In this document: piece by piece, positions 4,871 to 62,654 of the stretch
Layout of the letters: every line of letters starts with the position of its first letter
Position numbering within the stretch: the stretch's first letter is position 1
NCBI RefSeq assembly: GCF_963921235.1
Contig: NC_086097.1
Coordinates: forward strand, 124,436,001-124,500,000
Direction of reading: 5' to 3'
Source: Mobula hypostoma
Taxonomy: Eukaryota
Length of the DNA stretch: 64,000 nucleotides
The notes under the pieces: model-generated
What the model was told of the DNA's origin: nothing
Databases searched by the model: none
Seen by the model: the letters and a program-made list of their open reading frames with translations, nothing else
Position numbers and translations under genes: made by a program

Positions 4871-4874
4871 TATA

Positions 4875-7800
4875 TGATATAATTACTATATAGAGAGCAA
4901 CAGCATATTCAAGTTTAAATTGTCCCATTCAGGCCTAAAGATTCGCTGCGGAGCATTCCTTACTCCTGTGGGACAGCTTTCCTGACAAAGAGGGGTCATT
5001 CTGCTGAGCAAGTCAGACTTGTGGCTGTGGAAAAATCTCAGATTCGGGGGCCTCCTCCAGGGTGGTTGCAGGAGTTGACTCTGGGACTCCAGGAAGTGGC
5101 TCTGACAGCTCTGGACACCTTACATCTCTGTTTAAAATGATTCTGCTCTCCTCAACTGATCGATGTGTCACCTCCCGATGATAACAGGCACAATCACCAT
5201 TGTGCAGGAGAGTGATCCAGTTCCGTCCTAAATCTTTCCAGGTACCTACTTTTGTTCACATTGTAGTCCCGCGCAAGAACTGTTTGTCCAGGAATGAAAC
5301 ATCGAACCCCCTTGTTTGAGGAGATTTCAATCCATCTTAGTTGTTTGTCCTGCATACTCCTTCTGAGATTGGGCTTGAGGAAATCCAAGCGTGAACACAT
5401 GGAACGACCCAGGAACAGCACAGCTGGTGAGTTGTTGGTTGCGGAGTGGGCTGCATTGCCATATGCAAGGAGGAGATTGGCGAGCTTCTGATTCAGTGTT
5501 AGTGCAGTGTGTTCTGCTTGTTGTGTGTTCTTTAGACTCTGGACAAACATTTCCACCAAGCTGGGTAGTACGGTGCCTGTGTAATACGTTATATTCCATT
5601 CATTTTCAGGAATGACCGAAACTGCTCCCCCACAAACTGAGGTCCATTGCCACTGACTAAGTGTTATGGAACACCAGTCCTTGAGAAGAGGCCTCTCAAC
5701 ACATAAAAGGTGTGCGAGGCTGTAGGGGAGGCTGTTGGGAACACTTCAGGCCTCTTTGTAGCTGCATCCACTACTACCAAGAAATTTGTGCCCATGAATG
5801 GTCTAGAAAATTAACATGAATCCCCCGCCATGACATTGCAGGTCATCCCAGGGATGGAGAGGCACTGTTCTTGGCATCTTCTGGACGTGTTGGCATCCCA
5901 AACAGTGCATGGTGAGCTGATCTATCCCAGGCCACCAGACAAAGCTTCAAACCAATTCTTTTATTTTGACCATGCCTAGATGACCAGCACATAGCTCCTC
6001 CAACACCTTAGCTCTCAGCATTAATGGTACAACAACTCTCAACCCCACATACGGCAACCTCTGTCAAGGACAAGTTCATCCCAGCGATGGTAAAAATGGT
6101 GGAACTGGGATTTCTGCTGCACCTTCTAACCATTTTTGGTAGCCATGTAGACCTGAGACAGTGTGGGATCTTTTCTGGTTTCCCTTTGGATCATCTCTGC
6201 CGTAATTGGGTAACTTTCAATTTGTATTAGGGAGAATACATTCAGAGGGGTGTCCTCTTTTGTAAATTCTTCAGTATTTTCCTTTTCAAAGGGTAAATGG
6301 AGCAATCCATCAGTGTTTCCATGATTATTTGTTCTCTTTAATTCAATCTCCTAATTGTGTCCTCCAAGAAACAGAGCTCACCTCTGCGTAGATGCTGCTT
6401 CTGTTAGTTGACAGCCTTATGTGGATTGAAAATGGACACTAGTGGTTGATGATCAGTAGTGAAGGTAAACTCTCTCTCATACAAGTACTGGTTGAAACGT
6501 TCTACACTCCAAACCAGACTCAAGGCCTGTCTGTTAATCTGTGTGCAATCTTTTCATTTAGACTGCTTTACACCTCTGTGCCCATTGCCATTTCTTCCTG
6601 TTCTGTAGTAATAAGTTCAAGGTGTGGAGCGCAGCAGCCAGGTTTGGCAAGAACCTGTTATGGTAAAAAGGACCGCTACTGTAACACGTCCTTTGGCTTT
6701 GGGGCATCCAGCACTGCTTGAGTATTCTCATCACACTTGTGTAAATCTTGTGCATCAATGGTGTGACCACACTAAGTGATGATTGGTTTAAAGAATTCAC
6801 ATTTGTTTCGTCATCTTCTGAGCCCATAATCTTCTAATCTTTTTAACACTGTTTTGAGATTTTTGGAGATGTTCTTTGTCATCCTTACTGGTAACAATGA
6901 TGTTAAAACTGGGTGCCTGGGCAGCCTTACAGCACCTAGCCCATAGCTTTCTGCCACAGTGCAGGTGCCGATGCTACTCCAAAAACAAGCCTATTATAGT
7001 GATAAAGCCCTTTGTGAGTGTTTGTGGTGAGAAACACTTTGGACCTTTCTTCCATCGCCATCTGTTGTTAGGCCTCAGCTGAGTCCACTTTGCTGAAATA
7101 TTTTCCTCCCGAAAGGTTTGCAAATATATCCTCTAGCCTGGATACAGGGTATTGATCTACTTTCAGTACTGAGATGATGGTGACCTTACAATCACTACAG
7201 ATCCTGACAGACCCATTCTTCTAGGCTACCGAGTCCAGAAGCATTGCCCATGGGCTTTACTCAACCTTGGAAAGAATTCCTTCATCCTCCATGCATTCTA
7301 GCTCACTGGCTACTTTATCACAGATGATATAAGGAACCAGACCGGCTTTTTAAAACTTGGGTGTGGCATTTTCATAACACTATTTTACCGTTGATATGTT
7401 TGAGTTTTCCAACGCCAGCCTTGAACACGACTGTGGCATCATCCAGTACCTTTCTTAATTTGATTTCAGTTGATCCTATTGCAGGGGATGTGGCATGAAA
7501 ATGGCGGATGGATCTCCAATCAAGTTGTAGTTGTCTCTGACAATCATGGCCCCATAATTCTGGCCGTCCTGCTTTTACCATATACAAGCCCAATGTGGCT
7601 TGTTGCATGTTGCATTTCACTGTTACGAATGTCATACCCACGGGATTTATCGTTTCTCTAATATAAGTTCTTAGAAGCATATCCACAGGCTTCTGTTCAG
7701 TATCTTTGAAATGCTGCTCAAACTCATTTTGTGGAATGACTGAAACAGCCGAGCCAGTGTCCAATTCCATTTTAATTAATTTGCTGTTCACTTCGTGTGT

Positions 7801-8225
7801 GAACCATATTGCTTCTCTCCTGTTAGTTTTCACGTTGTAAATCTCAAGGCTACCTAGTCCTATGTCACTCTCCAATGTCTCGTGCTTCAACAGGCAAGTA
7901 GGCGATTCGGGTTTGTTTAAAACTTCCTCATCGCCATTGTTATGTTTTATAACTCTAAAACTTAAAACTAATTGAAAGGAAACGTGGTGCCGTGAATGCG
8001 CGTCTTTGTTTTTTTTTAAACTTGAAGTAAGGCGTGCACATGACATGGAGCCACACAGGGCTGAAGTCTGATTAAGCAGGGTGCTGTCTATGTGAAGTTG
8101 TGACAATATGCCATTCATGTACTTTTACATGTAACAGTAATTATGTAATCAACAAAAAATGCTTTATCAAACAATATATTTACAATATTACTCAAATATT
8201 ACTGAAATATTAAATAGCAGCAACA
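4875..8225 (-). mobile_element. Gypsy/Ty3 LTR retrotransposon remnant: 5' LTR 8225-7938, PBS, protease-RT-RNaseH-integrase; gag and 3' LTR missing
   Basis: TGT...ACA LTR followed by PBS-like TGGCGATGAGG (7936-7926); protease MELDTGSAVS; RT FSKVD and [13 protein letters not shown]; integrase C-terminal ORF 5194..5559; many disablements. Confidence 0.88.
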
Positions 8226-8563
8226 TTCTCTGTTCAAACACACTCCTTCTCATGAGTATTTTTGTCAATAGATTTAAATAAATCCCAGCTGGTCTGATAG
8301 TAAAAGCATTAGTAAGTTGGCGCTTATTTTAACATTTTCTAGTAAAGCCAAAAAAAGGCCTCTGTTCCTCACAGGATGCAGCTGTTTTCAATGTGGTAAA
8401 TAAAAGATGTTCTCCAGAAGTTTTACAGATGGGACACAGGATTTGTTTTTCAGAAAGGAAACAATATTTTCAAAAGCACAGTTTAAACAGACTTTATCAG
8501 TTATTGCCATTTGCAAAGCATACGAGAATACTAGAGGTCAACATTTCAAAAGATATTACTTGC

Positions 8564-8767
8564 CTGGATACCGATCTGCCAACATCGTATTCTGTTAATC
8601 TTGAAACTGAACTCTTCGATGTGGTTCTTTGGTAACCGAACACAGCAGTTAATTTCATAATTGCCCACACGAACAGTAGCAGGGCAGTTGGGCTCTGGAT
8701 AATCACAGGTGCAAGCCTCAAACTGTAGATGCCCATAGAACTTCACTTCCCTCATAAGTTCGAGGAA
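8564..8767 (-). CDS. SNX31: SNX31-like internal exon E (204 nt, phase 0->0): FLELMREVKFYGHLQFEACTCDYPEPNCPATVRVGNYEINCCVRLPKNHIEEFSFKINRIRCWQIGIQ (PTB-like F3 module)
   Basis: Acceptor ttcttccttag. Overlaps ORF 8546..8755. FLEL.REV..YG.LQ, CTCDYPE, VGN.EI.CC and CWQ match recalled SNX31. The 3' boundary assumes a GC donor CAG|gcaagt. Confidence 0.92.
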
Positions 8768-10061
8768 CTAAGGAAGAATAATTTTAAAATAGATGAAAAG
8801 TGATTAAAAGTGAAATTCTTTCTGGGGTTCTCAACAGTGCATCAGTTCTTACTTCTAAATAATGGTAGTTAACCCAGGACCAAAGTCCTGCTATTCAAAA
8901 CTTATCTTAATTAAACAGGTTGAAGTTTCATTCTTTTAACTTCAAAACTCTCAGGGATATTTGATTACAGGAAAATGACTATGTTTTGTGCATAACCATA
9001 TACAAATGATTCTAAAGATTGTTGACAGGAAAACATCAACCCGCCCCCAATCAAAGTGCAAAAAAAAATTGAACAAACAGCAGAAAGAGCGAAAAGCATA
9101 GAATATAAAACAATAACCCACAAGGTCATTGAAAGAGTCCAGACCTATTCAGTTCAGCTCAGTTCAGTTCAGCCTAGTGCAAATAGTGATAAAGTCACGG
9201 GAATAGACTAAGTCAAAGATTTCTTTATGCATCAGAATGGTTACATCACCAATATTATCACAGCGTGGATTCCAGTGTGCCTCTTGGCGACATTATCAAG
9301 CAAGTTCTATCACTGAGCCACACAGGGCAGACGTCTGATCAATCAGGGTGCTGTCTACGTGAAGTTTGGTAGTTCTCCTTGTCACCACGTGGGCTCGATT
9401 GTATGCTTCTGTTTTCTCCCATGTCCCAGGTTAGTGTTGCCATGGGCATGTCATGGTAGAATCTGGGGATGGGGTGGGGGGAGGGAGTAGAGGGAATGTA
9501 AGGAGAATTTTTTTTTAAAGGAGCTAATATTGGTTTTGGGCATGGATGCAGTGGATTGATAGGCCAGTTTCCCACTCCTCTCTCACTCTGAGGTAGGGCA
9601 CATTTTAGAGAAAGACTTTACTTTTACACAGCACCTTTCAAGACTTTAGATCATTCATTCCAAACAGCCAATGCCCACAAGCTGCACTGCAGGAGTGTTC
9701 AGATGTTTTTGAGACCTCAAGAGTTAAGAATTGAATCAGAATCGGGTTTACTATCAGTGACATATGTCATGAAATGTGTTATTTTGTGGCAGCTGGTCAC
9801 TGAGATACAAAGGAATTAGTGCCATTTCAGAGAAACATCAGACAAATGCCTGAGAGCGTAGGAGAAAACAGCAGAAATTCAATTCCTTAAAATGACATCA
9901 AGAAATCATTCTTGACACCAAGTGGGAATCAGAATCCGATTCAACACGAGCTAAATGATTCTGTTCAGGCAGTGATCTCATTGCTTCCAAGTGAGGAAGA
10001 AGAGGAGTATTGCAAGTAGGATAATCCATAACCAGAATCAGGTTTACTATCATGGACATAT

Positions 10062-14504: not shown

Positions 14505-15248
14505 CACTCAGTGCAACTTTATTAGGTACAGTTACACACCTGAAATGCTGGAGGAACTCAGCAGGCCAGGCAGCATCTTTGGAAAACGGTAAACAGTCGA
14601 CGTTTCGGGCCGAGACGCTTCATCAGGCCGGTTGGGTCCTGCTGAAGTATTTCAGCCCAAAACTTCGACTGTATTCTTTTCCGTAGATGCTACCTGGCCT
14701 GCTAAGTTCCTCCAGCATCTTGTGTGGGTTGTTTGGATCTCCAGCATCTGCAGATTTTCTCATTTGTGACAGTTGTATACCTGCTTGTAAACGCATATGT
14801 CTAATCAGCCAATCATGTGGCAGCAACTCAATGCATAAAAGCATGCAGACATGGTCAAGAGGTTCAGTTGCTGTTTAGACCAAACATCAGAATGGGGAAG
14901 AAATGTCATCAAACTGACTTTGACCGTAGAATGATTGTTGGTGATTTGAACATCTCAGAAACTGCTGATCTGGGATTTTCACACACAAGCCTCTAGAGTT
15001 TAGAGAGAATGGTGCAAAAAACAAAAAAAAAACATTCAGTGAGTAGCTGTAGGTGGGTGAAAATGGCTTGTTAATAAGAGAGATTAGAGAAGAATGGCCA
15101 GACTGGCTCATGCTGACAACAGTAACTCAGATAATCACACGTTACAACTGGTGTGCAGAAGAGCATCCCCTGAAGGCAGAACACGTCAAACCTTGAAGTA
15201 GATAGGGTGCATCAGCAGAAGTCTACCTAATAAAGTGGCCACTGAGTG
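14505..15248. mobile_element. Non-autonomous Tc1/mariner element (MITE-like) containing a Penelope-type fold-back insertion
   Basis: TIRs CACTCAGTG..ACTTTATTAGGTA / TACCTAATAAAGTGGCCACTGAGTG with TA at 14503-14504 and 15249-15250. Related copies at ~31875-32102, 39421-39896, 41165-41260 and 56925-57490. Confidence 0.85.
14540..14768. repeat. Penelope-type terminal repeat pair in inverted orientation, each with a damaged hammerhead motif
   Basis: Arms atgctggaggaactcagcaggccaggcagcatc / gatgctacctggcctgctaagttcctccagcat; minus-strand CTGATGA-AGCGTCTCGGCCC-GAAA-CGTC at 14594-14629. Confidence 0.75.
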
Positions 15249-18964: not shown

Positions 18965-19510
18965 CATAACACAGGGCTGTTTGCTCAGCCCAGTGCTGTT
19001 CACGCTGCTATCTCATGATTGGACTGCCAGATCCAGCTCAAACTGCGTCAAGTTCGGTGATGATACCACAGTGGCTGGCCTCATCGGCAACAATGATGAG
19101 TCAACACACAGAGAGGAGGTAGAGAGGATCATTAAAGGATGTGAGAACAACAACCCGAGTCTCAACATGGACAAGAAAAAAACGATGAGTATGGACTTCA
19201 CACAAAAGGCTGGAGGAACTCAACAGGCCAGGCAGCATCTATGGAAAAAGAAGGACCTTGGCCCGAAATGTTGACTGTACTTTTTTTCCCCATAGATGCT
19301 ACCTGGCCTGCTGAGTTCCTTCAGCATTTTGTACAAGTTGCTCGGACTTCCAGCATCTGTTGATTTTCTCTTCTTTGTGATTTGATTATGGACTTCGGGA
19401 AGGCACAGGTCAGCCACTCTCCATTGCACATCGATGTCTCTGCCTTAGAAAGAGTGAACAGCACAAAGTTCCTTGGTGTGCACATAATGGACGTGGACCA
19501 CCAACACCTC
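18965..19510 (+). mobile_element. Rex1/Babar-like RT fragment, split by a Penelope-type fold-back unit
   Basis: LSPVLFTLL..CVKFGDDTTVAGLI and ERVNSTKFLGVHI on either side of the insertion. Confidence 0.82.
19200..19382. mobile_element. Penelope-type fold-back unit with target-site duplication
   Basis: Inverted arms around a partial hammerhead (ggcccgaaatgttgactg); TGA(G/T)TATGGACTTC duplicated at 19186-19199 and 19383-19396. Confidence 0.8.
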
Positions 19511-26519: not shown

Positions 26520-26827
26520 TACAAGGGATTCTGCAGAAGCTGGAAATTCAGAACACATATTGGAGGAACTCAGCAGGTCAGAGAGCATCAATGGAGAGTA
26601 ATAAACAGTTGACATTTTGGGTGGAGACCATTCATCAGGACTGGAAAGGAAAGAGGAAGAAGCCAGAATAAGAAAGTGGGGGAGAAGGGAGGAGTACAAA
26701 TCCGCCTTCTTGTTCTGGCTTCCACTCTCTTCCTCTCCAGTCCCAATGAAGTGTCTTGGCTCGAAACATCAACTGTTTATTCCCCTCCAGAGATGCAGCC
26801 TGACCTGCAGAATCCAGCTTTTTGTGC
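26520..26827. repeat. Penelope-type inverted pair with two decayed hammerhead motifs
   Basis: Minus CAGTC-CTGATGA-ATGGTCTCCACCC-AAAA-TGTC-AACTG; plus CAGTC-CCAATGA-AGTGTCTTGGCTC-GAAA-CATC-AACTG. Confidence 0.72.
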
Positions 26828-27157
26828 ATTTAATGACTACTTTGTTCACTTTGCACTAAAATTGACCTTCCTGTTCTAAAAGAGCTCTTTTTTTTGTAGA
26901 ACTCCTGTGTTATTTATCTTTACAGATTTCCTGTGGATGGTGCCTATCTAATGCTCTATGCCTATGATGTTGCTGCAAATTACATTTTTCATTGCACCTG
27001 TTCATACAGGTACATGCGCAGATAACAATAAACTTGACCTTGACTATGTTCCCTTATCTATGTTTTTACACCCACTCACTCACTGACCTTGTTCACTACC
27101 GATCTCCAGTTCTACCCCATCATAGATACCGCCCCCTCACTCACATTCCCTGAAGCA

Positions 27158-28747: not shown

Positions 28748-29310
28748 AACTTTTGAGAGGTTAGATGGACTAGGTGTGTTTCCTTTGGAGCAGACGAGGT
28801 TGAGGGGAACCTGATAGATGTCTTCAAATAGTAAAAAAAAACCTTCTCTCCTATAAGGCTATATGATATAGGAATAGAATTTGACCATTCAGCCCATCAA
28901 GTCTGCTCTGCCATTCCACCGTGGCCAATTTATTATACAGTATCTCTCAACCTCTTCCTCCCTGTAAACTGTGACACCCACACTAATCAAGAATGACTTC
29001 AAATATAGCCAGAAGTGACTAGGAGGGATGTAGCTGCCACTATATTTATATCTGTCCTCTCGATAAAACTGCAGCCCAGCCTCCCCTTCACTCCATCATT
29101 ACTATCAATTCATGGTGTCAACCTTGGTTCAATGAGGAGTGCAGAAGGGAATGCTGGGAACAGAATTAAACATTCATAAAAATAAGATGCCACACTAATG
29201 AAGCTGCAACACATGATGTCCTGTGTGCTAAACGGAAAGAACAACCTGCCCTCCCACAATTACACACCTAGTACAGTGTCACTGACACAGAGGCAGAGTC
29301 ATACAACCTT

Positions 29311-29488
29311 GAGTAACACACACAAAATGCTGGAGCAACTCAGCAGGTCAGGCAGCATCTATGGAGAACAATAAACAGTCGACGTTTCAGGCCGAGACTC
29401 ATCAGCTCTGTTTATTCCTCTTCATACAAAATGCCCGACCTGCTGAGTCTCTTTGACATTTTGTGTGTGTTACTCTGCAGAATCTTGT
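29311..29488. repeat. Penelope-type fold-back unit
   Basis: Inverted arms; minus-strand CTGATGA-GTCTCGGCCT-GAAA-CGTC-GACTG at 29376-29410 with shortened stem II. Confidence 0.75.
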
Positions 29489-30749
29489 GTTCATACAACA
29501 TAGAATCAGTTCCGTCAGCCCACTATGTCCAAGCTGACCATCGTGCACTCACATCAATTACTTACTGAAACGACACTATTTACCAGAACTTGGTCCATGG
29601 CCTTCGTGCAGTATCCTCAAACCTACTCTAAACCTTTGACCCCCTCATCCCCCCCCCCAGATCACTCACCCTAAACATATACCCTCTAGCTTTATATATT
29701 TCTGCTACAGGAGAGACTCTCCTTGGTGTGAAGGCAGTACATGGTCATGTACACATACTTGATAATAATATTTACTTTCACTTTGACTCAGAGGGCTTGG
29801 TATCGGACACTGATTAAGAGTGTGATGAGAAGGAACTTTTTCTCTCAGAGGATATGAATCTTGGGCATTCCTTTCTACAGAAAGCTTGTGCATAGTTAAG
29901 GAAATGGAGAATTACAGGGAAAGTGCAAAGATAGCATCACGGTTGTTCCTGTCAATGCTATCGACAACAGACACGTTGATCTGAACAACATGTTATTGAT
30001 GTTGCTTCGCTCTCTGACAGTAACCTTCTTCCTTGGTCACATTTGGGTACATTTCAAGCAGAGTTTGATAGGTTACGGGGAGAAAGCAAGAGAATGGAGC
30101 TGAGAGTGGTGGAGCAGACTCGATGGGCCGATTGGCCGAATTCTGCTCTTGTGTCTTATGGACTTCGAGAAGTTTTGTTTTCACTAGGTCACTTGTTTTA
30201 TTTTATTTATCGACTGAGATACAGTGTGGAACAGGTCCTTCAAGACGTGCTGCCCAACAATCCCTGATTTAACCTTAGCCTAATCATGGGGCAATTTACA
30301 ATGACCAATTAACCTGGTAACCGGTGCACCTTTGGACTGTGGGAAGAAATCGGAGCACCCGGAGAAAACCCATAGGGAGAAGATACAAACTCTTTACCCA
30401 GGTCACTGGTACTGTAAACACACCAATACAGAAAGATACACACACACATACAGTTTATATATCGACCTCAATCAGACTGCCCCTCAGCCTCCTCCGCTTC
30501 AAGGAAAACAAACTCAACTCATCTAATCTCTTTTCATGATGGAAACCTCCCCCTCTCCACCCCAGTGGATCTTCTCTCCACCTTCTCCATTGCATTCACG
30601 TCCTTTCTATGGAATAGCAACCAATAACCGCATACAGGGCTTGCCATTGTTTTAAAACAGTACCAGAACATCCCTGCTCTTATATTTTATGCCTTGTCTA
30701 ATGAAGGCAAACACCCAAGATTGTTTAATGTCATTTCCAGTACACAAGT

Positions 30750-30900
30750 GTAACGCACGCAAAGTGCTGGAGGAACTCAGCAGGTCAGGCAGCATCTATG
30801 GAGAGGAGTAGATTGTCTGTAGATGCTGCCTGACCTGCTGAGTTCCTCCAGTATTCTGTGTGTGTGTTACTCTGGATTTCCAGCATCTGAAGAAGCTCTT
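30750..30900. repeat. Penelope-type fold-back unit with perfect 32-bp arms, hammerheads deleted
   Basis: 30767-30798 is the exact reverse complement of 30820-30851; 21-nt spacer. Confidence 0.9.
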
Positions 30901-39185: not shown

Positions 39186-41409
39186 TGTCTTGCTTTCAAT
39201 TGCCTGATCCCAGCCTGCTGATAATCCCTCCCTACACCTTTCAGCCTCGTTCATCTCCTTAAATGTGTTATTTAGTTCCCCTTCCCCTTTTTCTTTCTTT
39301 TATGTGAAGTTAGCTGTGAGCTTACCTGCCCTTACCAAGTGATAACAGTTAAGGTGAAAGGAGAAGTGCATTTGACTTTGCACGGTACTGCTGCGACGGA
39401 ACAACAAGTTTCAAAAGATACACTCAGTGCTTCTTTATTATATATATGGTCTTTTGCTTCAAGGTTCGAGGTTTTGTGCATTCAAAGATGCCCAAAGATG
39501 CTGTTGTAATAGATGGTTACTTAAGTTACTGTTGTCTTCCTGTCAACTTGAACCAGTCTGGCCGTTCTCCTCTGGCCTCTCTTGTTAACAAGGCATTTTT
39601 TAGATTTATTTTTCTTTTTCACACCACTCACTGTAAACTCGAGAGACTGTTGAGAGTGAAAATCCCAGGAGGTTAACAGCTTCTAAGATACTCAAACCAC
39701 CCATCTGGCACCAACAATCATTCCACAGTCAAAGTCACTTAGACCTCCTTTCATCCCCATTCTGATGTTTGACCTGAACAACTGAACTTCTTAACTGTGC
39801 CTGCATTCATTTATGCATTGAGTTGCTGACGCATGATCGGCTGATGAGGTATTTGCATTAACGAGAAAGTGTACCAGATAAAGTGGCCACACAGTGTTCG
39901 GTACATTATCTGAAGGAATTTAAAATATTCAGAACTGACACTGAACTAAATTGTTCCTCTCAATAAACTTGCCAGGTCACCAAATGTTTTGGGAAATGAC
40001 TTTAAACAGGATGAAATGCTGGGGAAGATGACCCAGAGCAGAATTTTGAAGGGAGGGAATGGAAAAATAATTGAATCAAAAATATTTTAAGAATGTGGAG
40101 AGAGGTCAGTTAGCTCTTTCAGAAGCTGTTACATGCACAATGCCCATCTCTTCAGCATTATAGTTTTTTTATTTATGTTTTTCCATTTTTAACTATTACA
40201 AAGAATTTAGAGGAAGTCTACTAGAAGGGAAATCAAACACACAGTTTCATTATAAACAAATCTCATATTAATTATTGTTTTAAATTGTTCAGCTAAACGA
40301 TAATAGAATATTTATTATTTTTGAATGGCCCAGTGGAAAATGTTTTTCCTTTTAGAGCCATGGAGCACTACAGCACAGAAACAGGCTCTTTGGCCCATCC
40401 AGTCTATGCTAACTTTTATTCCGCCTAGTCCCATTGACCCACACTCTCCATACCCCTCCCATCCATCTACTTACCCAAACTCCTCTTAAAAGTCGCAGTC
40501 AAACCTGCATCTACCACTATCTCCAGTAGTTTGTTCCACATTCACGCTGCTCTCTGAGTGAAGGTGGTCCTGCTTAAATATTTCACTTTCAACCTTAACC
40601 TATGACCTCTAGTTCTAGTCTCACCCAGCCTCAGTGGAAAAAGCCTGCTGCATATACCCCAGTAATACCCCTCATAATTTTATTAAATCTCCCCTCATTC
40701 TCCTATGCTCCAGGGAGCAAAGTTTGAACCTGTTCAACCTTTCCCTATAACTCAGGCCGTCAAGTCCTGGCAACATCCTTGTAAATTTTCTCTGTACTCC
40801 TTCAATCTCTTGTATATTTCCTATACATTTAATGCTTCCAGAGATGAGAGGTGGGAATAGGAGAGGTCCAACGACATCAATGCTTTTGTCTGAGAGGAAG
40901 TCCTAGTGGTATCATGTGTCACCTGTGAGAAGCCTGTGCTCCTATCACTTGTAGATAATGAGAACAGCACCTACTTGAAGCAAAGAGGGTCAGAACATTG
41001 AGAGAGAATAAGTTAAAATAAACATAACAATATATCCAAATATGCACTTTAAAATCATATTCAGGTCTGTCCATAACTTTGCCCCTCACTTTTCCACAAG
41101 CTACACAGCCCTCCAAGTTCTGCCACTTGTGCATCCCCAACATCACTAAATTTGCACAACACATCGAACCTTGAAGAGGATAGACTACAGCAGCAGAAGA
41201 CCATGAACATGCACAGTAGCCACTTTATTAGCTACAGGAGGTACCAAATGAGTACATTTGTGGAGGCCCCAGCCACACTGGCAGCTCTACATGATTGTCC
41301 ACCCTTTGCTCTACACTTGCTCCTGTTGCTGGTGACCAAGCGAGATCAAGTCATGTTCAGGAGACTGGGAAGGACATCAATCAATACCAAACAGAGACTG
41401 GACTGGGCA

Positions 41410-41875
41410 GAAGCTTCTTACTTCATCCCTTCCTCCCTCACCCTCTTACCTTCCCCAGCTTCCTGGAATTTCTCTCCCCAACTTCTCCCCCCTTTTCATT
41501 CCCCATTCTGGCTCCCTTCTTACCCCTTCTCTTCTGTTCACCTCCCCGTCATTTCCTTCTGGTGCCCCTCCTCTTCGTCTTTCTCTCATGGTCCACTCAG
41601 ATTCCTTTTACTTCAGCCCTTTACCTCTTCTACCTATCACCTCCCAGCTTCTTACTTCATCCTCCCTCTTCCACCCACTGACCATTCCCCTCACCTCGTC
41701 TCACCTACTGCATCACCTTCTAACTTGTACTGATTTGCTGCCCCCCAACCTTCTTATTCTGGCTTCTTCCCCCTCTCTCTCCAGTCCCAACGAAGGGTCT
41801 TGGCCCAAAATGTTGACTGCTTATTCCCCTCCAGAAATGTTGCCTGACCTGCTGTTCCTCCAGTATTTTGTGCTT
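41410..41875 (+). repeat. Penelope-type end: long polypyrimidine tract plus decayed hammerhead repeat
   Basis: C/T-rich tract then CAGTC-CCAACGA-AGGGTCTTGGCCC-AAAA-TGTT-GACTG at ~41782-41819. Confidence 0.68.
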
Positions 41876-44484
41876 TCTTAAATGTAAAAAGGTGATAGAT
41901 ACATCCCCCACCACCTAATATTCCAGAAATTAAAACTGAGAATGAAAGAACAACCCGTGAGCTGTGCAGTTGTCTGCAGCTTTCGCCCCGACCATTTTAC
42001 TTGGAAGAGTGACTAACCACAGTTTTCACACTCTCAGTTACCAACCAGCCTTCAGTATCATCCAACAGGCATTTCCCGGGCCACCCAATGCACATGCTGA
42101 CCTGTAGCTCTGCTAACAACCTCACTTAATGGCTATTTCTTCACCTGATATGCCGAGCTAACATAGAACAGTACAGTACAGGCCCTACGGCCCACAATGT
42201 TGTGCTGACCATTTAACCTACTTCAAGACCAATCTAACCCTTCCCTCCTACATAGGCATACGGATGACAGAAAAATGGAGGGCTATCTATGAGATTCTTA
42301 AATGTCCCCAGTGTATCTGCCTCTACCAACACCCTTGGCAGTGCATTCCTTGCACTCACCACTCTGTGCAAAAAAAACCTCAGTTCTTGACATTCCCCCT
42401 TCACTCCAGAGAGAAAAGCCCTCAACTCACTCATCCTATCCTCATAGACTTCGAATCAGCACAAGACCAAAGAGCAATATTTGATCCAGTCAAACCACTC
42501 AAAACCACTTAAAGCATTCATTTCTGCACCAATGTTGTTGGTGAGGCCAACATTTGTCATCCATCCTTAGTTGCTCCTGAACTCAGTGGTTTGCTGGGCA
42601 ATTAACTGTGACCAGCATTGGTATCACACGTAATGGACTGAACTGACCCAGCCACTCCAGCTGAGTGCAGTATTCAACACTGCAGGCAAAACCTCCACCA
42701 TGATCTTCCAGCATCTACACATAGACCTGCTTGGGGGTGGAGTTTGAGGCCTAGTGCTCGGGGCCTGTCATCAGCAAGTCTGGTGCTTGAGGTCTAGTAT
42801 TCAGTGATCAGGATAGAGGCTAGGAGTTCAAGTCAGAATCCGGGGCCCGTTGGCTAGAGGCCTGTGCCTGTGAATCCCTGCAAGTCCTTTGGAGTAGTTG
42901 AAGGCTCAATGCCTGTGTGCTCTTGCTCGAATCCAAGGCTGGAGACTGAAGACAACTTGGGATTAGCGGACTGTGTATGTGCATTTGTGGGAGGGAAGAA
43001 TGCAGCTTATTTTGTTGCTGTTGCTTTGCGGCTTGTTGTGCTGTGTTGTTCTGCCGAGCATTGTGGGTATGCCATGTTGGCGCCAAAATGTGTGGTGACA
43101 CCTGGGGCTGTTCCCAGCACAGTGTGTTAGTTGTTAATGCAAATGACACATTTCACTGTATGTTTTGATGGATATGTGATAAATCATCTTGAATCTTGTG
43201 CACCTGAAAGCACCCACAGGTAAACTACTGAGTTGGCCTGTTGTTGAGGCCTTTCTGAATCCAAAGGAGGTAGGAGGCTACTCAGTGTAGGGGCCTTGTT
43301 CCCCTCAGATGTTCCGCACCTTCTTGCAGATCGTGCTAATTGTGTATAACTTAGACCATCCGGGCCTCTCTTCAGAGTGAGGTCAGACATACCACAATGG
43401 TCAGTTGTTCTGGTAATCTCATTGCCTTGCAACCCCAGATCAGGGAAGTATCTACTTCCACTTCTCCAACTTTCCACAGAAACAATTCCGCTCCCTGCTT
43501 AGTGGCTTCACTTTGTTCACTGGTGCAGCTTCTAACCAACAGCTCACTCCAAAGGTTGAGGAACAGACAAATTTCAAGACTCACAGCAGGGTTTACGTAA
43601 AGGTGACAATTTGTTGACCAGCAGGGAATTAATACAAGACTAAAAAGGTGTAACACTATGTGACACGGTTCCTCCCCTCTTCTCATTACTACCAACACAA
43701 AGATACAGGAGTCTGAAGCCACATGCTCAACACTTTAGGAACAGCTTCTTCCCTTCCGCCATCAGATTGCTGGATGGACAATAAACCTATGAACACTATG
43801 TCACTATCATTGCTCTTTTTGTATTACTCATTTAGTTTACAAAATACATTTCTTGTTGTAATTTAAAGTATATTTTATGTTTTGCATTGTATTGCTGCCA
43901 CAAAATCCCAAATTTTCATGACAGTGATAATAAACCTGATTCTGACTCACTTATTTGTTGTGATGTATGGATACTGTTGGAAAGAGCTGCATCGTCTACC
44001 CCTGATTACCCAGTACTCACCAGGTTACTGTGTTATTTGAAAGGACAATTTAACATCATTCATTTTGCCCTATCGGCAGTCGCATATAATGAAGACCATA
44101 AGACTTGGGAGCAGAATTAGGCCATTCGGCCCATCGAGTCTGCTCTGCCATTCCATCATGGCTAATATTGAATCCCTCTCAACATCATTCTCCTGCCTTC
44201 TCCCCATGACCTTTGACACCCTGACTAATCAAGAACCTATCAACCTCCACTTTAAATATACTCAATGACTTGGCTTCCACCTCCACCAGTGGCAATGAAT
44301 TCCACAGATTCACAGCCCTCTGGCTAAATGAATTTCTCCTCATCCGGGGCAACTCATCTTCCCTTACAGCACGTGGGGGGAGGGGTTGTTTAGAGGAGGT
44401 GTGCAGGACAATTTTTTTATGCGGACAAGTCTTTTTATAAACACGGAGAGTGATGCCTGGAACAGGTTGCTGGGGTAGTGGTGG

Positions 44485-47400
44485 TGTAGGGCAACATAAT
44501 TGAGAGAAATGTACACAATTCACAACCACCAACATTGAGTTGGGGTTTGGCTTTAAGAGGCTGGTCAGACGTGATGACATTATTACGTAAAAGGTTTTCA
44601 GCATGCTCTTGTTGTGTAGGTTTTGGGAGTTCAATAAAATGTGTTACGGATTTCATTAAACATATAAAGCCTCACTTTGTTTTATTTGTGCAAACCTACA
44701 TTGGTGACCCCGATGCTCTAGGAGGATTCCGGAGTTATTGAATATGTCGGCCAATGTGGTCACTTCGGAAGTGCCAGAGTTTTGGGAGCAAAATGCCATC
44801 GCTTGGTTTGGACAAACTGGGGCCCAATTTGCACTGTGAGAGATCACTGTCATAAATACCAAATATTTCTTTGTGATAGTGTCACTCAGTAATTACACAG
44901 CTGCAAGAGTGGTGAATCTACCAGAACATATGACTGAACATGATAAATACCAATCGCTGAAAACTCATCCTTTTGGACTTTTGGACCACTGGAGTCCGAG
45001 CACACCAAACAGTTGCCCTTCTTACCCATGCTCGCCAATGTTAGGCCTTCAGAGCTAATGGGCCACTAGTTGTCTCTCCCGGGAAATCACCATCCTTGTT
45101 TTATTTTTAAAGCAGCAAATGCCTGATCAAGTTCACATAGCCCTCGCTAATGCACCCTTGAGGGATTTTAGGAAGCTTGCTAAAATAGCTGATAGTCTAC
45201 ACTCAGCCAGGCAGCAGTGCATAATTCCTCCTCCTTTCCGTACCTCAGCAAGGCCCCCAACACAAGGACGTCCGTGGCTATGAGACAGATGACACTGGGC
45301 CTATGCTTTTACCAAGCTGGCTTTGATAGGAATGCTAGGAAGTGCCACCGCCTTGCAGCTTCAGCAGTGCCTACACATCGGGACATCAGAGGTCTGTGAA
45401 CACCGTGGGTTCCAGCTGCCAGGATGGTCTACTGTTCATCACAGGCTCCTTTTCAGGGCCGTACTTCCTGTGTGACACGGGTGCTGAAGTGAGTATGTTA
45501 CTGGCATCACTAATAATAATTACTTCATTGATCCCGAGTGGGAAATTAATTTGTTACAGCAGCATTTAAAAACACACTTAGCAATAATAATAAATAATAG
45601 TAATAAATATAATAATAGTAACTAATAATAAAATACATAATAATAATTTAACAATGTGTAAAATAATAAAACAGAGACTATTGTACTATGATGTGTGCTC
45701 TCTTTGCACAGAGATGAACTGTTGTATATGCTTATTGATGAGACAGCAAAGAGTGATGAAACCTCGCTGGAGGCCGCCAACGGCTGCAAGATCCTGACTT
45801 ACGGGACATGACGGGTGACGCACTGCTTCAAGTGGGCGACGTTATACTTGGGGCTTCAAGTAGCTAGACCTCTGCTCGGTGCAGATTTCCTGTGTGCCCA
45901 AGGACTGCTAGTCGATCATAAGAACTGCCAGCTTGTGGATGTCAAGGACGTTGGGTTGTTACCTTGCTTCCTCAGCAAGTTCCCCACAAAGACTCCATCA
46001 AGTGCATGCACCATCACATGTGACTTTACTCGACTGCTGGGTGAATTCCAGAACCTCACCGAGCCCACATTCTCCACCGCAGTCACAAAACATGGGGTCG
46101 AGCATCACATTTCCACAACTGGCCCGCCAGTTCATGCCCACGTGTGTAGACTGGAGCCAGAAAAGCTGGCAGCTACCAGGGCAGAGTTTGCCAACATGGA
46201 AAGACTCTGAATTGTACACCAGTCGAATACCCCTGGGCTTCACCCCTCCATATGGTCCCTAAGTGTGACGGTGGTTGTCGCCCATTTGATGAATACTGAC
46301 AGCTTAATGAGGCCAATTGTTACCTAGTCGCTACACATTCAAGACTTTTTGGCATGTCTAGCCGTTAAGTTAATTTTCTCCAAAGTTGATCTAGTTAGGG
46401 GCTACCATCAGGTGTCTGTGTGCTTGGAGGACATTCCCAAAACAACTGTGATAACCCTGTTTGGCCTCATTGAGTTTCTGCACATGCTGTTTAGACTGAA
46501 AAATGCAGCACAGACTTTCCAATGGCTGATGGACTCTGTATTAAAAGACTTAAATTTTCTTTTTGTTTGCCTGGATGACATATTTGTCACCAGTGCGTCC
46601 AAACCCAAACACGTATCTCATCTCCGCATGCTTTTCAAGCACTTAAGCCAACTTGGGTTGATTATTAACCCTGCTCAATGCCAGTTTGGATTGTCAATCA
46701 CTCAGTCACTGATCTTCTTGGCCATCCATCTCCGAAGAAGGTCTGAAACCCCTCCCATCAAAGGTAGGCGCTATTATGCGTTTCCCACTGTCCCGCACTG
46801 CTAAAAAGCTACAGGAGTTTTTAGGCATGGTGAATTTCTGTCACCACTTCATTCTGCAAAGTGCTGAAGTTATGCATCCCCTGTACAGTGTGCTTAAAGA
46901 CAATACCCCTAATCAGGTGCTTGACTGGTCAGTAGACATGACCAGGGCATTTGATGGTCACAACTGATATACAACGTATCAAGGAGAAAAATAATGCCAC
47001 GTCCAATTGCCTCTCATGGCCAGCCGTTGAGACTGTAACGTAGGGGTTAATTATGCTGGCATCGCAGCCGACCAAGTTACTGACCCAGGGGTCCAGGTTT
47101 ACTGAACAGCATTCGGTGGCCTGCAGTTGGCTGACGTTAAGTTCAGGGAGGCTGGTGTTTCTCTCTTGTGCAATGTCTCAATGGGTCACCCTCACTCCAT
47201 TGTGCCCGCAAACTGGAGACAGACTGTTTTCAACTCCATACAAGGTCTCTTGTATCTGGGCTGGAAGGCCTCACAGAAACCAGATGAACCAGAAAGGACG
47301 TGCGTGATTGGACTGCTGCTTATGTGGGGTGCTGGCGGGCAAAAATTAACCATCATGTTCAGGCATCACTGGCAAATTTTGAGGTCCCTAAGCGATGGTT

Positions 47401-48238
47401 TGGCCATGTCAATGTGGATCTTGTTGGTCCTCTTCCCCCCTCCCTCAGTTTCACACACCTCCTTACCATGGTGGACCATACCATCAGGTGGCTAGAGGTC
47501 GTCCCTCTAGCATTGACGATGGCTGCAGATGTGGCTCGGGCTTTCATCAGCACCTGGGTTGCTCTGTTTGGCACCCCATCTGACATTTCCTCCGACCGCA
47601 GTCCCCAATACATTTCAGACCTCTGGGCTGCGGCGGCCCAAAACCTCAGTAATCATGGCCTGCCTCCCATCATGGCGCACAGCACTCTCAGGTTCCTGTT
47701 GACCTACATTCCACCACATTTGTTTCCGTCCGCCATGACGCACACTAACATAGTAAAGATTTTCTATCATAGATAAGTGCGGGGTAATCTCGAACTTATT
47801 TTGACTGATCGCCATAAACCAGCCCACCAGGATTTGGAGTATTCCGCTGCCATGCCCCCTGGCGTCACAACATGACCGTGAGCGTGTCAATACACCTCTG
47901 GGTGAGCCAGAGGCACCTGCGGTTCCTCCACCCATGGAACGCTGGACTCAAGCCGGGTTGCTCGTCCGAGCTCCAGACAGGCTCACAGTGCCAGCTTTAG
48001 TGAATCCTGGGGGTGGGGTGGAGTGTAGGGTAATGTAATTGGGAGGAATGTACATAATTCACAACCATTGGCACTGGGTTGGAGCTTCGATTTAAGAAGC
48101 TGGTCTGACATGATGACGTCACTAGGCAAAAGGCTTTTAGCACGTTCTTGTTGTGTAGGTTTCGGAGTTTAATAAAATGTGTCATGGGTTTCGTTAAACA
48201 TAAAACGCCTCCCTTCACCTTATTTGCGGAAACCTACC
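44485..48238 (+). mobile_element. Gypsy/Ty3 LTR retrotransposon with both LTRs (44485-44700, 48024-48238), decayed gag-pol
   Basis: TGTAGGG...AACCTAC LTRs about 80% identical; PBS TGGTGACCCCGA at 44702; purine-rich tract at 48009-48023; protease FLCDTGAEVS; RT FSKVDLVRGYHQ and CLDD; integrase VNVDLVGPLP and ISSDRSPQY; flanks GTGG/ATGG within a CR1 3' UTR. Confidence 0.92.
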
Positions 48239-56525: not shown

Positions 56526-57692
56526 CAGAATTAACCACAGGAAGTTTCAGATTTCAGTTTGTTTAAAAGAAAGGCCAGCTTTAATTTTTAAGAGTTTTAA
56601 AGAGATTCAAAAAAATTGTGAGCATTTAAAAAAAATAAAAATTACATCCTAATGATGTTAATGCTCCTCCAAGTTGGCATGTTCAACAAGTATTTAATAA
56701 GCTATGTATTTAATGAAAAGCTGATGGAATTCAGTGAGTGAGGCAGCATCTGTAGAGGGAAATGGACGGTTGATGTTAGGATTTGGACCCTTCATCTGGA
56801 TACTCAACGATTTAGAAACAGCTTCAACCACGCCCCCCACCCCCAACATCAGATTTCTGAATGGTCCATAACCCATGAGCACTGCCACACCATCTTGATT
56901 TCTTTTTGCACTACTTATTTATTGGCCTCAGTGGCCACTTTATTAATTATACCTGCTCATTAATGCAAATAAATAATCAGCCATTCACGTGGCAGCAGCT
57001 CAATACATTAAAAGCACGCAGGCATGGTCAGGAGGTTCAGTTGCTGTTCAGGCCAAACATCAGAATTGGGAAGAAATGTGATCTAAGTGACGTTGATCAT
57101 GGAACTATTGTTGGTGTCAGACGGGGTGGTTTGAGCATCTGAGAAGCTGCCGATTGCCTGGGATTTTCACTCACAATCAGTCTCTGGAGCTTGCATAGAA
57201 TGGTGTTAAAAACAGTGAAAGATGTCCAGTGAGTGGCAGCTCGCTGGCAAAAATGCCTTGTGAAGGAGAGAGGAAAGCAGAGAATGGTCAGACTGGTTCA
57301 AGCTGACAGGAAGGTGACAGCAACTCACATAACTACTCATTACAACAGTGGTGTGCAGAGGAGCATTTCTGAACATACAACACATTGAACCTTGAAGTGG
57401 ACAGGCCACAATAGCAGAAGACCATGAATATACACTCAGTGGTCACTTTGCTGCGTACAGGAGATACTTAATAAAATGTCCACTGCGTACATTCCTTAGT
57501 TGCTAGTAGGTGGAATGAACATACAGGGTAGAGCAGAAAACTTCGGAATACTGAAAAAATTTCACTAAAACAATCATTTTACTGAATATACACTGAAGAT
57601 ATTCAGTGACCTGGAAGCATAGAAACAGAAAGGTACAGTAAAGAAACTATCCTTTTTAGAAATTGCTAAAAAGAAAAATATACTTTACCTAC

Positions 57693-57780
57693 CTTTTCCT
57701 GATCATTATTCTGCTGTTTCCATTCTGCGGGCTCCATAGTCTCACATATGGCAACTCAAAGGCATGTAGTTTTCTCAGCA
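57693..57780 (-). CDS. SNX31: SNX31-like internal exon B (88 nt, phase 1->2): (V)LRKLHAFELPYVRLWSPQNGNSRIMIRK(S)
   Basis: Acceptor gagcag and donor AG|gtaggt. Contains the SNX17/SNX31 signature RKLxxFELPYV. Phases are compatible with both neighbours. Confidence 0.93.
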
Positions 57781-58069
57781 CTGCTCCAAGATAATGAAAA
57801 AATAGTCACAACTGTGTCTTTTTCTATATATATTATAATACTTTGAAATGGAATCAATGGGAGTCTATAGAGGAAGAATGGAGAAGTGGAGTATACAGAG
57901 AATGTAAACAATGAGAGAAGGCACATTAGGCTCAGTGGAAAAACTGGAGGCCACATACCACCTAAAGAAACACATCTTCAACAGCTCAAATTAACCGTTA
58001 AAAATTTTCTCTGCCATTCTCTTTTTTCTGATTCACAACATAATAACCTCTAGAAATCGCGCATGGAAC

Positions 58070-59530: not shown

Positions 59531-60335
59531 CGTGTTATCTTTCAGTTTGCTCCTACAACATGCAATAATTTCCCCAGTAACAGTGTAATAAGCGCGGTCA
59601 CCCATTGTATTACACCCTTCATTTGGAAGTGCATCGAACATTGGAAAATGCTTCAATAAATACAAGAAACTTGCAACTGGAAGCTATATCCCTGGAAAAT
59701 CATATTCCATTTCAGGGAGAATGAAAAAGACTTTAATAAGTGTGGTGCTGAGAGAAAACTGACCACACTTCAGAATTTCCAGGCCAGTGGCTGCTGAATG
59801 AAAGAACTTCCATTTGCATGGGGTAGCGATAATATATTTTGGGATTGTATAAAATGTCTGACAGATATTTTATCCAAACAATTATTGTTTGGATAAATCT
59901 TGGCTGAGGCATTGAACAGCTGATTAGATGGGGTCATACAGAGTTGATTCATGGAAACAGGAAATTAGGACAATCTAGTCTGCTCTGTCTATCAAACCTC
60001 CGCTTTTAGATTAGGGTTGGTGTAAAAACCAAACCTGACCTAAAGCATTTATTCTCTCCACATCCTCATCAATTCAGACTGAATTCTGCCAGTCAACAGC
60101 ACATTAGAGGTAAACCTGGGTTAACTGGCCACTATAGTCATGCAGTCATGGGGTGAGGGGGAACTGGAGGGAGAGGAGCAGGGGAAGGAGAAGTTGAGGG
60201 GGCGAGGGCAAGTGAGGGAAATAGACAAAGAAACATTGCACCATTTGTGAATGTCTTCCACCTCTCAAGTAGATGCTTCTCACATTAGTCCACCACCAGA
60301 CTGCCTTATGGAGTGAAATTGAATTTGGAACTCAC

Positions 60336-60426
60336 CAGAGTATCCTCCTTCAGCATGTTCACAAACGAGATACAAGGTGAAATATTCCAAAAGGTGCCTC
60401 GGTAGTTCAATTTTCTGGGCTGCAAT
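60336..60426 (-). CDS. SNX31: SNX31-like sorting nexin, internal exon A (91 nt, phase 0->1): IAAQKIELPRHLLEYFTLYLVCEHAEGGYS(V)
   Basis: Acceptor ttttaaaag and donor G|gtgagt on the minus strand. Peptide aligns with the SNX17/SNX31 FERM-like segment (recalled SNX17 AAKLDLPDDLIGYFSLFLV, SNX31 KIGLCRELLGYFGLFL). Splices in frame to the next exon. Confidence 0.9.
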
Positions 60427-61296
60427 CTTTTAAAAGCAAATCACCTCATTACTGAAGAACATTTCTCGCAGAGAGAAAAAACATTTTAAGAATTAAGAGA
60501 AATTTGACTCAATTAGCTACTGCAAGGGAAAGTTGTTAAGAAACAGGAGAAGGCCATTGGGAGCAATCCCATCAATGAGAATCAATATCTAATTATTTAT
60601 AAGAGTTGATTAGGAGTTAATTTATGTAATATTCTGAACATAGGAGAGGTAAGACTTACCCACACGGACACAATGAGATAAATCTTTTGTGATTCTAACA
60701 TACAGTATATTGAAGCATTTGCTGTTTATGAAGCAAGAAGTTCAAACCAGGACCACAGACTGCTAAGTTGGCCTTTGCTTTTTTTTTGGTCCCTTCTCAC
60801 AACTTTCCAATGTTAGAAGATTTCTTTTGGAACTATCCTCCAGCAGATTACCAGGTGTAACACATTGAAACTTGGGAATCTTTGGCTCATAATCGCTCAA
60901 ACTGGAGAAGAGGTGCTTGAGATGGCACTGAAAACTCTGGGTCCAGGCATCAGGGTGTACAGAAGTGTAAGATAAGCCCTGAAAAAAGCTCACCATTTCC
61001 CAACCCACCAAGCTCCTCCACCTGGAGCAAAGCTCACCATTTCCCAAACCACAACACTGCTGAAACCACCAACTCCTCCACCTGGAGCAAAAATCTGCAG
61101 ATCCTACATTGGCCTCAAGATTTTTTATTTCCATGCTTCAGTACACGTGACAAGGAGAACAAAATGATTGTTACTCCAGATCTGATACAGCATTAAAAAA
61201 AACAGAGCATAAAAAATACAATAAATACAATACAAGAACAATCTTATAAAACAAAATACGTAAGTAACTGTTCATAGTGGCCATATATACATAAAT

Positions 61297-61334
61297 TAGT
61301 CCTGACGAAGGGTCTCGGCCTGAAACGTCGACTG
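61297..61334 (+). ncRNA. Minimal type I hammerhead ribozyme motif (Penelope-associated)
   Basis: Stem I UAGUC/GACUG, core CUGACGA, stem II GGGU(CUCG)GCCU, GAAA, then C-GUC with predicted cleavage after 61329. Confidence 0.75.
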
Positions 61335-61428
61335 CGCCTCTTCCTATAGATGCTGCTTGGCCTGCTGCGTTCACCAGCAACTTTGATGTATGTTGCTTGA
61401 ATTTCCAGCATCTGCAGAATTCCTGTTG
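61297..61428 (+). mobile_element. 132-bp Penelope-type terminal-repeat insertion with perfect 11-bp TSD
   Basis: TATACATAAAT at 61286-61296 and 61429-61439; CpGs retained. Confidence 0.88.
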
Positions 61429-61634
61429 TATACATAAATGATACTAGGTGCAGGAGTATTCAAACACAAGGTGACTGACTGGAAATTACATTGTCACCTC
61501 AAGACTTGTAGTGGAAGTAGATCACTGTCGATTCCAATGTTCTGGTTAATAAGTACCAAGTCTAGGTTAACACTGATTCCACCTCCACAGATGCTGACTG
61601 ACTTGCTGAATATTTCAGGTGTTCTGGTTTTAGA

Positions 61635-62318
61635 CAATAGACAACAGGTGCAGGAGTAGGCCATTCAGTCCTTCGAGCCAGCACCACCATTCACTGTGAT
61701 CATGGCTGATCATCTACAATCAGTACTCTGTTCCTGCCTTTTCCCCATATCCCTTGACTCCGCTATATTTCAAAGCTCTATCTAACTCTTGCTTGAAAGA
61801 ATCCAGAGAATTGGCCACCACTGCCTTCTGAGGCAGAGCATTCCACAGATCTACAACCCTCTGTGTGAAAAAGTTTTTCCTCAACTCCGTTCTAAATGGT
61901 CTACCCCTTATTCTTAAACTGTGGCCTCTGGTTCTCGACTCCCCCAACATCGGGAACATGTTTCCTGCCTCTAGCGTATCCAATCGCTTAATAATCTTAT
62001 ATGTTTCAAACAGATCCCTTCTCATTCTTCTAAATTCCAGTGTATACAAGCCCAGTCGCTCCAATCTTTCAACATATGACATTCCCGCCATCCCTGGAAT
62101 TAACCCAGTAAACCTACACTGCACTTCCTCCATAGCAAGAATGTCCTTCCTCAAATTTGGAGACCAAAACTGCACACAATACTCCAGGTGGGGTCTCACC
62201 AGGGCCTTGTACAACTGCAGAAGGACCTCTTTGCTCTTATACTCAACTCCCCTTGTTATGAAGGCCAACATGCCTTTAGCTTTCTTCACTGCCTGCTGAA
62301 CCTGTATGCTTACTTTCA
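61635..62318 (-). mobile_element. CR1-type LINE young 3' fragment
   Basis: ORF 61720..62430 is open through RPHLEYCVQFWSP..FFTQRVVDLWNALP; (TTGTCTA)n tail. Confidence 0.92.
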
Positions 62319-62654
62319 GATTTATTGCAGATGCTTGCCCATATTTCTTTGGGAACTGTGCTATTGAGACCAGTCTACGAGCCCACACTGCCTGCAGGGC
62401 CTTATTGAAAAAGAACACGAAATATGGCATGTGTCCATTGTTGTAGTCTTAAATGATCACAAAGATAAATAGTTCAGAACTATCACAAACTCCACAGGGA
62501 GAGCAGACTAAACACAAGTGTGCATGGTTCCATTTGCCAAGCTCCTGTTGCAGACAGTGGCAAGCATCAGTGACCGTCTCTTCTCAAAACTTTGGCCTCT
62601 GCATATCTTCCTTTGTAAACAGACCGGAGCATTTCTCCCAGAAGACTGTTGGCA

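Follow-up and report, generated by a model that had tools for sequence, protein, structure and literature searches.

A recent insertion with a minimal hammerhead motif in a ray-like cartilaginous fish is probably a 5'-truncated terminal piece of a Penelope-like element

Both the type of ribozyme and the structure of the insertion that are discussed here have already been published, in work on Penelope-like elements (PLEs). For the minimal hammerhead ribozymes (min-HHRs) of these elements, no cleavage is reported for monomers and weak cleavage for dimers (PMC4209133), one of nine Xenopus dimers was cleaved (bioRxiv 10.64898/2026.07.22.740005), and the hammerhead of an Anolis PLE is described as cutting only with the element's protein and as dispensable for insertion in vitro (PMC11167929). 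The pair G10.1-C11.1 is given as highly conserved in min-HHRs (Cervera and De la Pena 2014, PMC4209133). As to the elements themselves, an optional one-sided tail is reported for PLEs (PMC8557442, PMC3846280), and the target-site duplications (TSDs) of rotifer PLEs measure 8-10 bp (PMC3846280). The locus described here is a recent, TSD-flanked insertion of 132 bp. It is probably a 5'-truncated terminal piece of a high-copy PLE, made by the endonuclease and reverse transcriptase (RT) of that element, and its hammerhead would be a passenger that does not cut in this place. The literature on Penelope in Mobula and cartilaginous fish yielded no description of this ray family; one may exist in Repbase, in Dfam or in the supplementary files of PMC4209133 and the preprint.

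The window, that is the whole 64-kb stretch of DNA that was analysed, contains the insertion at 61297-61428 on the plus strand, where a hammerhead is followed by a spacer and a long-form 3' end with a tail. An exact 11-mer, TATACATAAAT, occupies 61286-61296 and recurs at 61429-61439, with 132 bp in between. At random positions of the window, with the same spacer and 5 bases of slack at either side, a direct repeat of at least 11 bases was found 2 times in 3000. The left and right duplications are AT-rich, in keeping with the short TSDs of PLEs. One T per boundary, at 61296 and at 61429, also matches the element's own continuation as seen in loose ends of contigs, and for this reason each edge of the insertion is uncertain by 1 base. 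The unit has no ORF and no upstream repeat of its family.

Contigs of four public runs were compared over 60900-61700: X1 and X13 are from organism A, the latter from a different sample and study, X5 is from organism B (record 18) and X9 from organism C (record 24). In both X5 and X9 a contig joins 61285 directly to 61429, so that the orthologous site is empty and carries the target only once in both of the other organisms compared (2 of 2). These contigs differ from the window in 7 of about 350 (X5) and 4 of about 200 letters (X9), plus a 3-base gap. Because the target is present only once at the empty site, the duplication is a true TSD and the insertion is specific to its lineage. The perfect 11-bp duplication around a 132-bp unit, as claimed by the initial annotation, is thereby borne out by the sequence, the repeat search and the empty sites, and the check for insertion-free alleles that it had proposed has given a positive answer. 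In X1, the filled junctions have contig depths of 27.2 and 25 and the flank 30.2; the insertion looks homozygous, but this run may be the assembled sample itself and is therefore not independent evidence. A joint between 61294 and 61439 in X1 and X5 was considered as an empty allele or polymorphism and was rejected, having 21 letters on one side and a skip of 144 instead of 143.

Six CpGs survive in the 132-bp unit, in a window with an overall CpG observed/expected ratio of 0.33. The earlier statement that the CpGs are largely unmutated holds for these six; positions 61321-61322 read TG, where several other copies of the family have a CpG. Two letters of this copy are enriched in organism A: G61336 has a depth share of 33% in X1, 35% in X13, 2% in X5 and 0.5% in X9, and A61390 one of 19%, 12%, 3% and 0.2%, respectively, all being upper bounds on summed depth of contigs that are at least 88% alike to the unit. 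Because of this enrichment, the copy is likely to belong to a subfamily that expanded in the lineage of organism A.

The minimal type I hammerhead (61297-61334, plus strand) was recognised from the sequence, from folding and from the definition in PMC4209133. Stem I consists of 5 bp between 61297-61301 and 61330-61334. It is followed by CUGACGA at 61302-61308, an extra A at 61309 and a stem II of 4 bp (61310-61313 with 61318-61321) with a G.U at 10.1-11.1, and then by GAAA at 61322-61325 and CGUC at 61326-61329, with the putative cut after C61329. There is no helix III stem or loop; the palindrome ACGU at 61325-61328 takes its place. All core boxes (CUGANGA, GAAA and NUH) and helices I and II are hence present, as are the extra base between 9 and 10.1, here A61309, and the palindromic positions 15.2-16.2, both published features of min-HHRs. 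The layout at the start of the unit is therefore as had been proposed. This copy departs from the conserved G10.1-C11.1 pair of min-HHRs in having U at 11.1. Among 11 aligned copies in the window the pair is G-C in 7 and G.U in 3, and the contigs of the public runs list no letter other than U at 61321. The U may be a character of the subfamily or a private decay of a CpG; a search of the literature on the effect of a wobble at 10.1-11.1 gave nothing useful.

Covariance models and comparative data do not lend further weight to the motif. A search with Rfam yields no match at the gathering score in the whole window, and within 61240-61480 none of its hammerhead families is matched even at E<=10, so that the Infernal check with hammerhead models, which had been suggested earlier, fails to detect it at either threshold. 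Covariation in stems I and II, likewise named as a check, is absent from the 11 window copies: none of 9 pairs is changed on both sides, in what is a weak test, the copies being decayed relics of one family. Over these copies 79% of the cells are paired, with no excess over shuffles. The folding z-score of 61290-61345 is -0.18, also no better than shuffles. What speaks for the motif is its conserved boxes and its agreement with the published definition of min-HHRs (PMC4209133). In 13 window copies that were checked, both core halves are kept in 3, and both boxes together with both stems, the latter judged by eye, are kept only in the copy at 61297.

How this motif would behave as RNA can be approached by modelling, with the reservation that nearest-neighbour folding ignores Mg2+, tertiary contacts and help by proteins. 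ViennaRNA pairs the core G5-G8 with C15.2-C17 at a probability of 0.98-0.99, and this core trap (-11.0 kcal/mol) lies 4 kcal/mol below the hammerhead register (-7.0 kcal/mol). A self-duplex of ACGU contributes only -1.7 kcal/mol, and the best structure of two copies, at -30.3 kcal/mol, is not an active dimer. The monomer is thus predicted not to cut alone, its core being paired with itself, in agreement with the literature on min-HHRs and on the Anolis PLE hammerhead. No intact hammerhead on the same strand, which could act as a partner, was found in the window. The earlier description of the ribozyme as intact is correct for the catalytic boxes, which are complete, and overstated in view of the G10.1.U11.1 wobble and the predicted core trap.

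The insertion is one of many relatives. A single query finds 14 matches in the 64 kb, and a profile finds 18; the profile was built from 11 of the 14, which match it by construction. This amounts to about 1 relic per 3.5 kb of window. Contig depth, summed over the unit, reaches about 10^7, as against about 30 in the flank (roughly 10^5 times), which is not a copy number but marks the family as a massive repeat. Five head-to-head pairs occur among the 18 matches, as is characteristic of PLEs, whereas the copy at 61297 itself is single-armed. Two older pairs, at 14532-14761 and 19195-19370, each consist of one long and one short arm; the second of these is flanked by a common 10-mer, a likely TSD. 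A third pair, at 29306-29484, has a 9-mer common to both flanks, so that shared flank words of 9-10 bp are seen in two pairs. The remaining two lie at 26524-26831 and 30749-30899. In each of the 4 pairs from the single-query search, one arm reaches query position 127-128, while the other stops at 78-97.

This difference between the arms corresponds to the optional tail of 30-40 bp that PLEs usually have on one end. The 61297 copy has the long end. Its tail can be placed at about 61400-61428 (plus strand, left border and length approximate), a segment which is present in long-form copies (query ends 127-129) and not in short-form arms (78-104). At the other end, the window copies are cut short to varying extents at the 5' side of what is a longer terminal repeat, as is expected of PLEs. 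Extension upstream into a pyrimidine-rich repeat is seen in 4 of 13 inspected window copies and in hundreds of contigs, with upstream loose ends of a median of 79 letters in X1 and 136 in X5. The longest window copy, at 41410-41878 (plus strand), has about 370 bp of pyrimidine-rich sequence, a presumed pLTR with an approximate left border, followed by a decayed hammerhead. No ORF remnant was found upstream of it, and three plus-strand frames of 40501-41792 have no Pfam match. Nor did a search of the six frames of the window for PLE RT and GIY-YIG motifs give a convincing match; the segment 41156-41244, which in translation looked like a GIY-YIG C-terminus, was rejected and belongs to another repeat. 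By five structural features, the insertion would nevertheless belong with truncated PLE termini carrying a min-HHR.

Outside the window and the contigs of the public runs, the family was encountered in proteins. Two of the 4 candidates from a protein search with the unit's 47-codon frame are Mobula gene models with an embedded copy, 94% and 79% identical in translation, and no PLE domain; they suggest a ray-like host. These models, a STARD3NL isoform and an uncharacterised protein, have the unit in frame, either by exonisation or as an artefact of annotation. Exact-pattern scans of metagenome contigs and viral contigs gave 0 loci.

It could be imagined that the unit is a self-standing, non-autonomous retrozyme monomer, amplified via its own ribozyme-processed circular RNA. 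It is indeed short, non-coding, TSD-flanked and hammerhead-bearing, and monomeric derivatives of PLE pLTRs are reported from vertebrates, one chondrichthyan included (bioRxiv 10.64898/2026.07.22.740005). This reading is nonetheless very improbable. The unit is solo, while active retrozymes consist of two or more tandem units according to the same preprint, and no head-to-tail array exists among the 18 window matches. The hammerhead is minimal and not canonical, so that neither the tandem units nor the canonical type I hammerhead, with a helix III stem and loop contacts, of non-LTR retrozymes is found. Moreover, the ends of the unit do not match the cut site, and its relatives extend upstream and form inverted pairs of PLE type. 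As the unit is solo, its relatives continue upstream and the inverted pairs have a one-sided tail, a 5'-truncated PLE end fits better than a discrete mini-element. From the initial proposal of a recently mobile, ribozyme-bearing mini-retroelement, the recent retro-insertion, the true TSD and the PLE-type minimal hammerhead are retained; its discrete, retrozyme-like nature is given up in view of the solo unit, the upstream extensions and the inverted pairs.

The 3' part of the unit raises another option, namely that it represents a LINE-2-type recognition stem-loop, which would make the unit a SINE-like element carried along by a LINE. The segment 61375-61428 is predicted to fold as a stem-loop, and it coincides with the only Rfam match at E<=10, to UnaL2 (15.9 bits, E 2.3). 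That score is no better than chance and falls far short of the gathering threshold of 55, 61428 is not followed by poly(A) or a short tandem tail, and inverted pairs with one-sided tails are features of PLEs. A SINE-like origin is accordingly hardly credible. For the terminal piece of a PLE, the modelled stem-loop could be a protein-binding or priming hairpin.

The 5' edge deserves separate attention. Just before 61296, the parent element reads a branch-point-like TACTAAC, a pyrimidine tract and CAG in loose ends of X1, X9 and X13, that is in three of the four runs, at a column agreement of the consensus of 0.56-0.82. The insertion therefore starts within one base of an acceptor-like site, although no spliced read was encountered. 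We take the same bases also to resemble the initiator consensus of transcription starts. In older copies of the window a pyrimidine tract is present and the CAG falls inside stem I. Judged by eye, about 5 of the 13 copies begin no more than a few bases from stem I, a pattern that seems less random than simple truncation would leave. Two further observations were put aside: the median loose-end length of 12 before 61296 would suit a stop at the branch A, but where the repeat graph is tangled the ends of contigs are no proof of this, and the Mobula gene models, considered as evidence that the acceptor is spliced, were rejected because reading through the bases upstream would account for their residues too.

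These data invite the idea of a programmed mini-insertion. In this scheme, the PLE protein would prime at the tail site, close to the 5' end of the mRNA that encodes it, and would copy up to a fixed stop, a splice acceptor or transcription start at the edge of stem I, giving a recurrent class of inserts of about 130 bp. The acceptor-like motif directly before 61296 and the window copies that begin near stem I are in line with this, as are the intron of the D. virilis Penelope, which ends at the 5' end of helix I (PMC4209133), and the Anolis PLE protein, which is reported to start reverse transcription internally, at +111-118 of the ORF (PMC11167929). Yet copies that start there lack the common first exon expected of a spliced template, PLEs are described as usually retaining introns (PMC8557442), and the two Mobula proteins are no proof of acceptor use. 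Splicing and transcription start are guesses at the level of motifs, and clustered ends would also result from a polymerase that stalls at the helix or from fold-back at short matches. We consider a programmed edge unlikely, though worth keeping in mind. If true, thousands of such young inserts from a subfamily confined to one species, with empty sites in close relatives, would provide a natural in vivo record of the internal initiation that the Anolis element shows in vitro, and would reveal how intron, promoter and ribozyme overlap in a vertebrate PLE. A fixed 5' edge, whether set by splicing or by transcription start, would matter more, because it would bear on the origin of the 5' ends of PLE copies and on the purpose of the hammerhead.

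The insertion lies within a gene. In a scan of 8 chosen frames, the minus-strand frames 60283-60429, 57692-57805 and 8549-8767 match FERM Pfam models of SNX17/27/31. The nearest downstream host exon frame, 60283-60429, corresponds to the F1 lobe of FERM (PF21273, E 0.00016, below the curated cut-off), the next, 57692-57805, has an E of 5e-06, and the frame 8549-8767 is identical to an SNX17 chain in PDB at 28 of 65 residues (43%). Since the nearest FERM frame is mid-domain, on the minus strand and about 0.87 kb below the insertion, the latter is intronic and antisense. The initial placement antisense to SNX31 is upheld as far as an antisense, intronic position in an SNX17/31-family gene is concerned, by the three FERM frames; for the gene's name, an SNX17 paralogue such as SNX31 is a plausible candidate from the 43% identity. 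The host pre-mRNA carries the reverse complement of the unit, which is not a hammerhead.

Several other features of the surroundings may be mentioned. The insertion is flanked by high-depth repeats, a short one at 61143-61200 and an older fragment of the same PLE family at 61572-61626, and 61629-61700 is the high-depth end of a LINE-like relic with a frame at 61720-62448 (minus strand). In the intron, 60990-61090 contains a direct repeat of about 20-30 bp, with two copies near 61015 and 61075; part of this segment is not covered in organism B. Two family copies, at 14603-14630 and 29378-29406 (both minus strand), are sense to the SNX pre-mRNA and have both core boxes and broken stems. Farther away, the decayed frames 5194-8124 (minus strand) and 45812-47776 (plus strand), with stops and frameshifts, are presumably, as judged by eye, like LTR-retrotransposon pol/integrase.

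On the basis of these elements, a history of the 5'-truncated PLE piece can be sketched. By analogy with the Anolis system (Frangieh 2024), the PLE protein would have nicked AT-rich DNA and started reverse transcription at the tail site, within the element RNA, thereby fixing the 3' end at 61428. Synthesis of cDNA would then have halted about 132 nt further on, where stem I of the hammerhead has its 5' edge, and 11 bp of target were duplicated in repair. This happened, as dated by the empty sites, after organism A had split from B and C. The source was likely a burst of a lineage-specific subfamily, the alleles of which are enriched as depth shares. The copy would have been dead on arrival, because it has no ORF and no upstream repeat. 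Being antisense to the host pre-mRNA, with a self-paired core and no intact same-strand partner in the window, the ribozyme is predicted to be inert.

The value of the locus seems to be that it is a clean, dated insertion of a PLE fragment, with a filled site, empty sites and an exact TSD. It shows that a PLE subfamily was still active once the lineage had separated from two close relatives. It may be used as a marker and, in assays of protein-assisted cleavage, as a substrate.

Finally, the locus can be set beside the known systems. With non-LTR retrozymes, as described in PMC7229834 and by Li et al. (bioRxiv 10.64898/2026.07.22.740005), it shares a short non-coding repeat, a type I hammerhead, kinship with PLE pLTRs and a TSD of >4 bp; unlike them, it is not tandem, its ribozyme is minimal and its unit is not set by the cut site. 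The min-HHRs in pLTRs of metazoan PLEs, including Xena, Poseidon and Neptune of fish, stand closer, with the same CUGANGA and GAAA, the palindrome instead of helix III, the extra base between 9 and 10.1 and the helix I of 5 bp (PMC4209133). According to that paper they too are mostly dispersed single motifs from truncated elements with a low expected activity, and they form opposite-strand pairs 100-700 bp apart, as does this family. The differences are the G10.1.U11.1 pair in place of G-C, a helix II of 4 bp as against 7-8 bp in Schistosoma, a ray-like cartilaginous host unlike those named in that account, and a density far above the 4,000-9,000 motifs per genome that it gives for coelacanth and Xenopus. 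The canonical, endonuclease-bearing PLEs (Craig 2021, PMC8557442; Arkhipova 2013, PMC3846280) and the Anolis Poseidon PAc (Frangieh 2024, PMC11167929) differ from this copy, which is one-armed and for whose family the window gave no linked ORF. In their published descriptions they have in common with it the 5' truncation, the head-to-head arms and one-ended tail of the family, and a TSD near 10 bp at an AT-rich target. The hammerhead, too, is found in a comparable place, with roughly 100 nt between it and the 3' end: the distance is 99 nt in this copy and, as calculated from PMC11167929, 85-92 nt from the cut site to the internal start in PAc.
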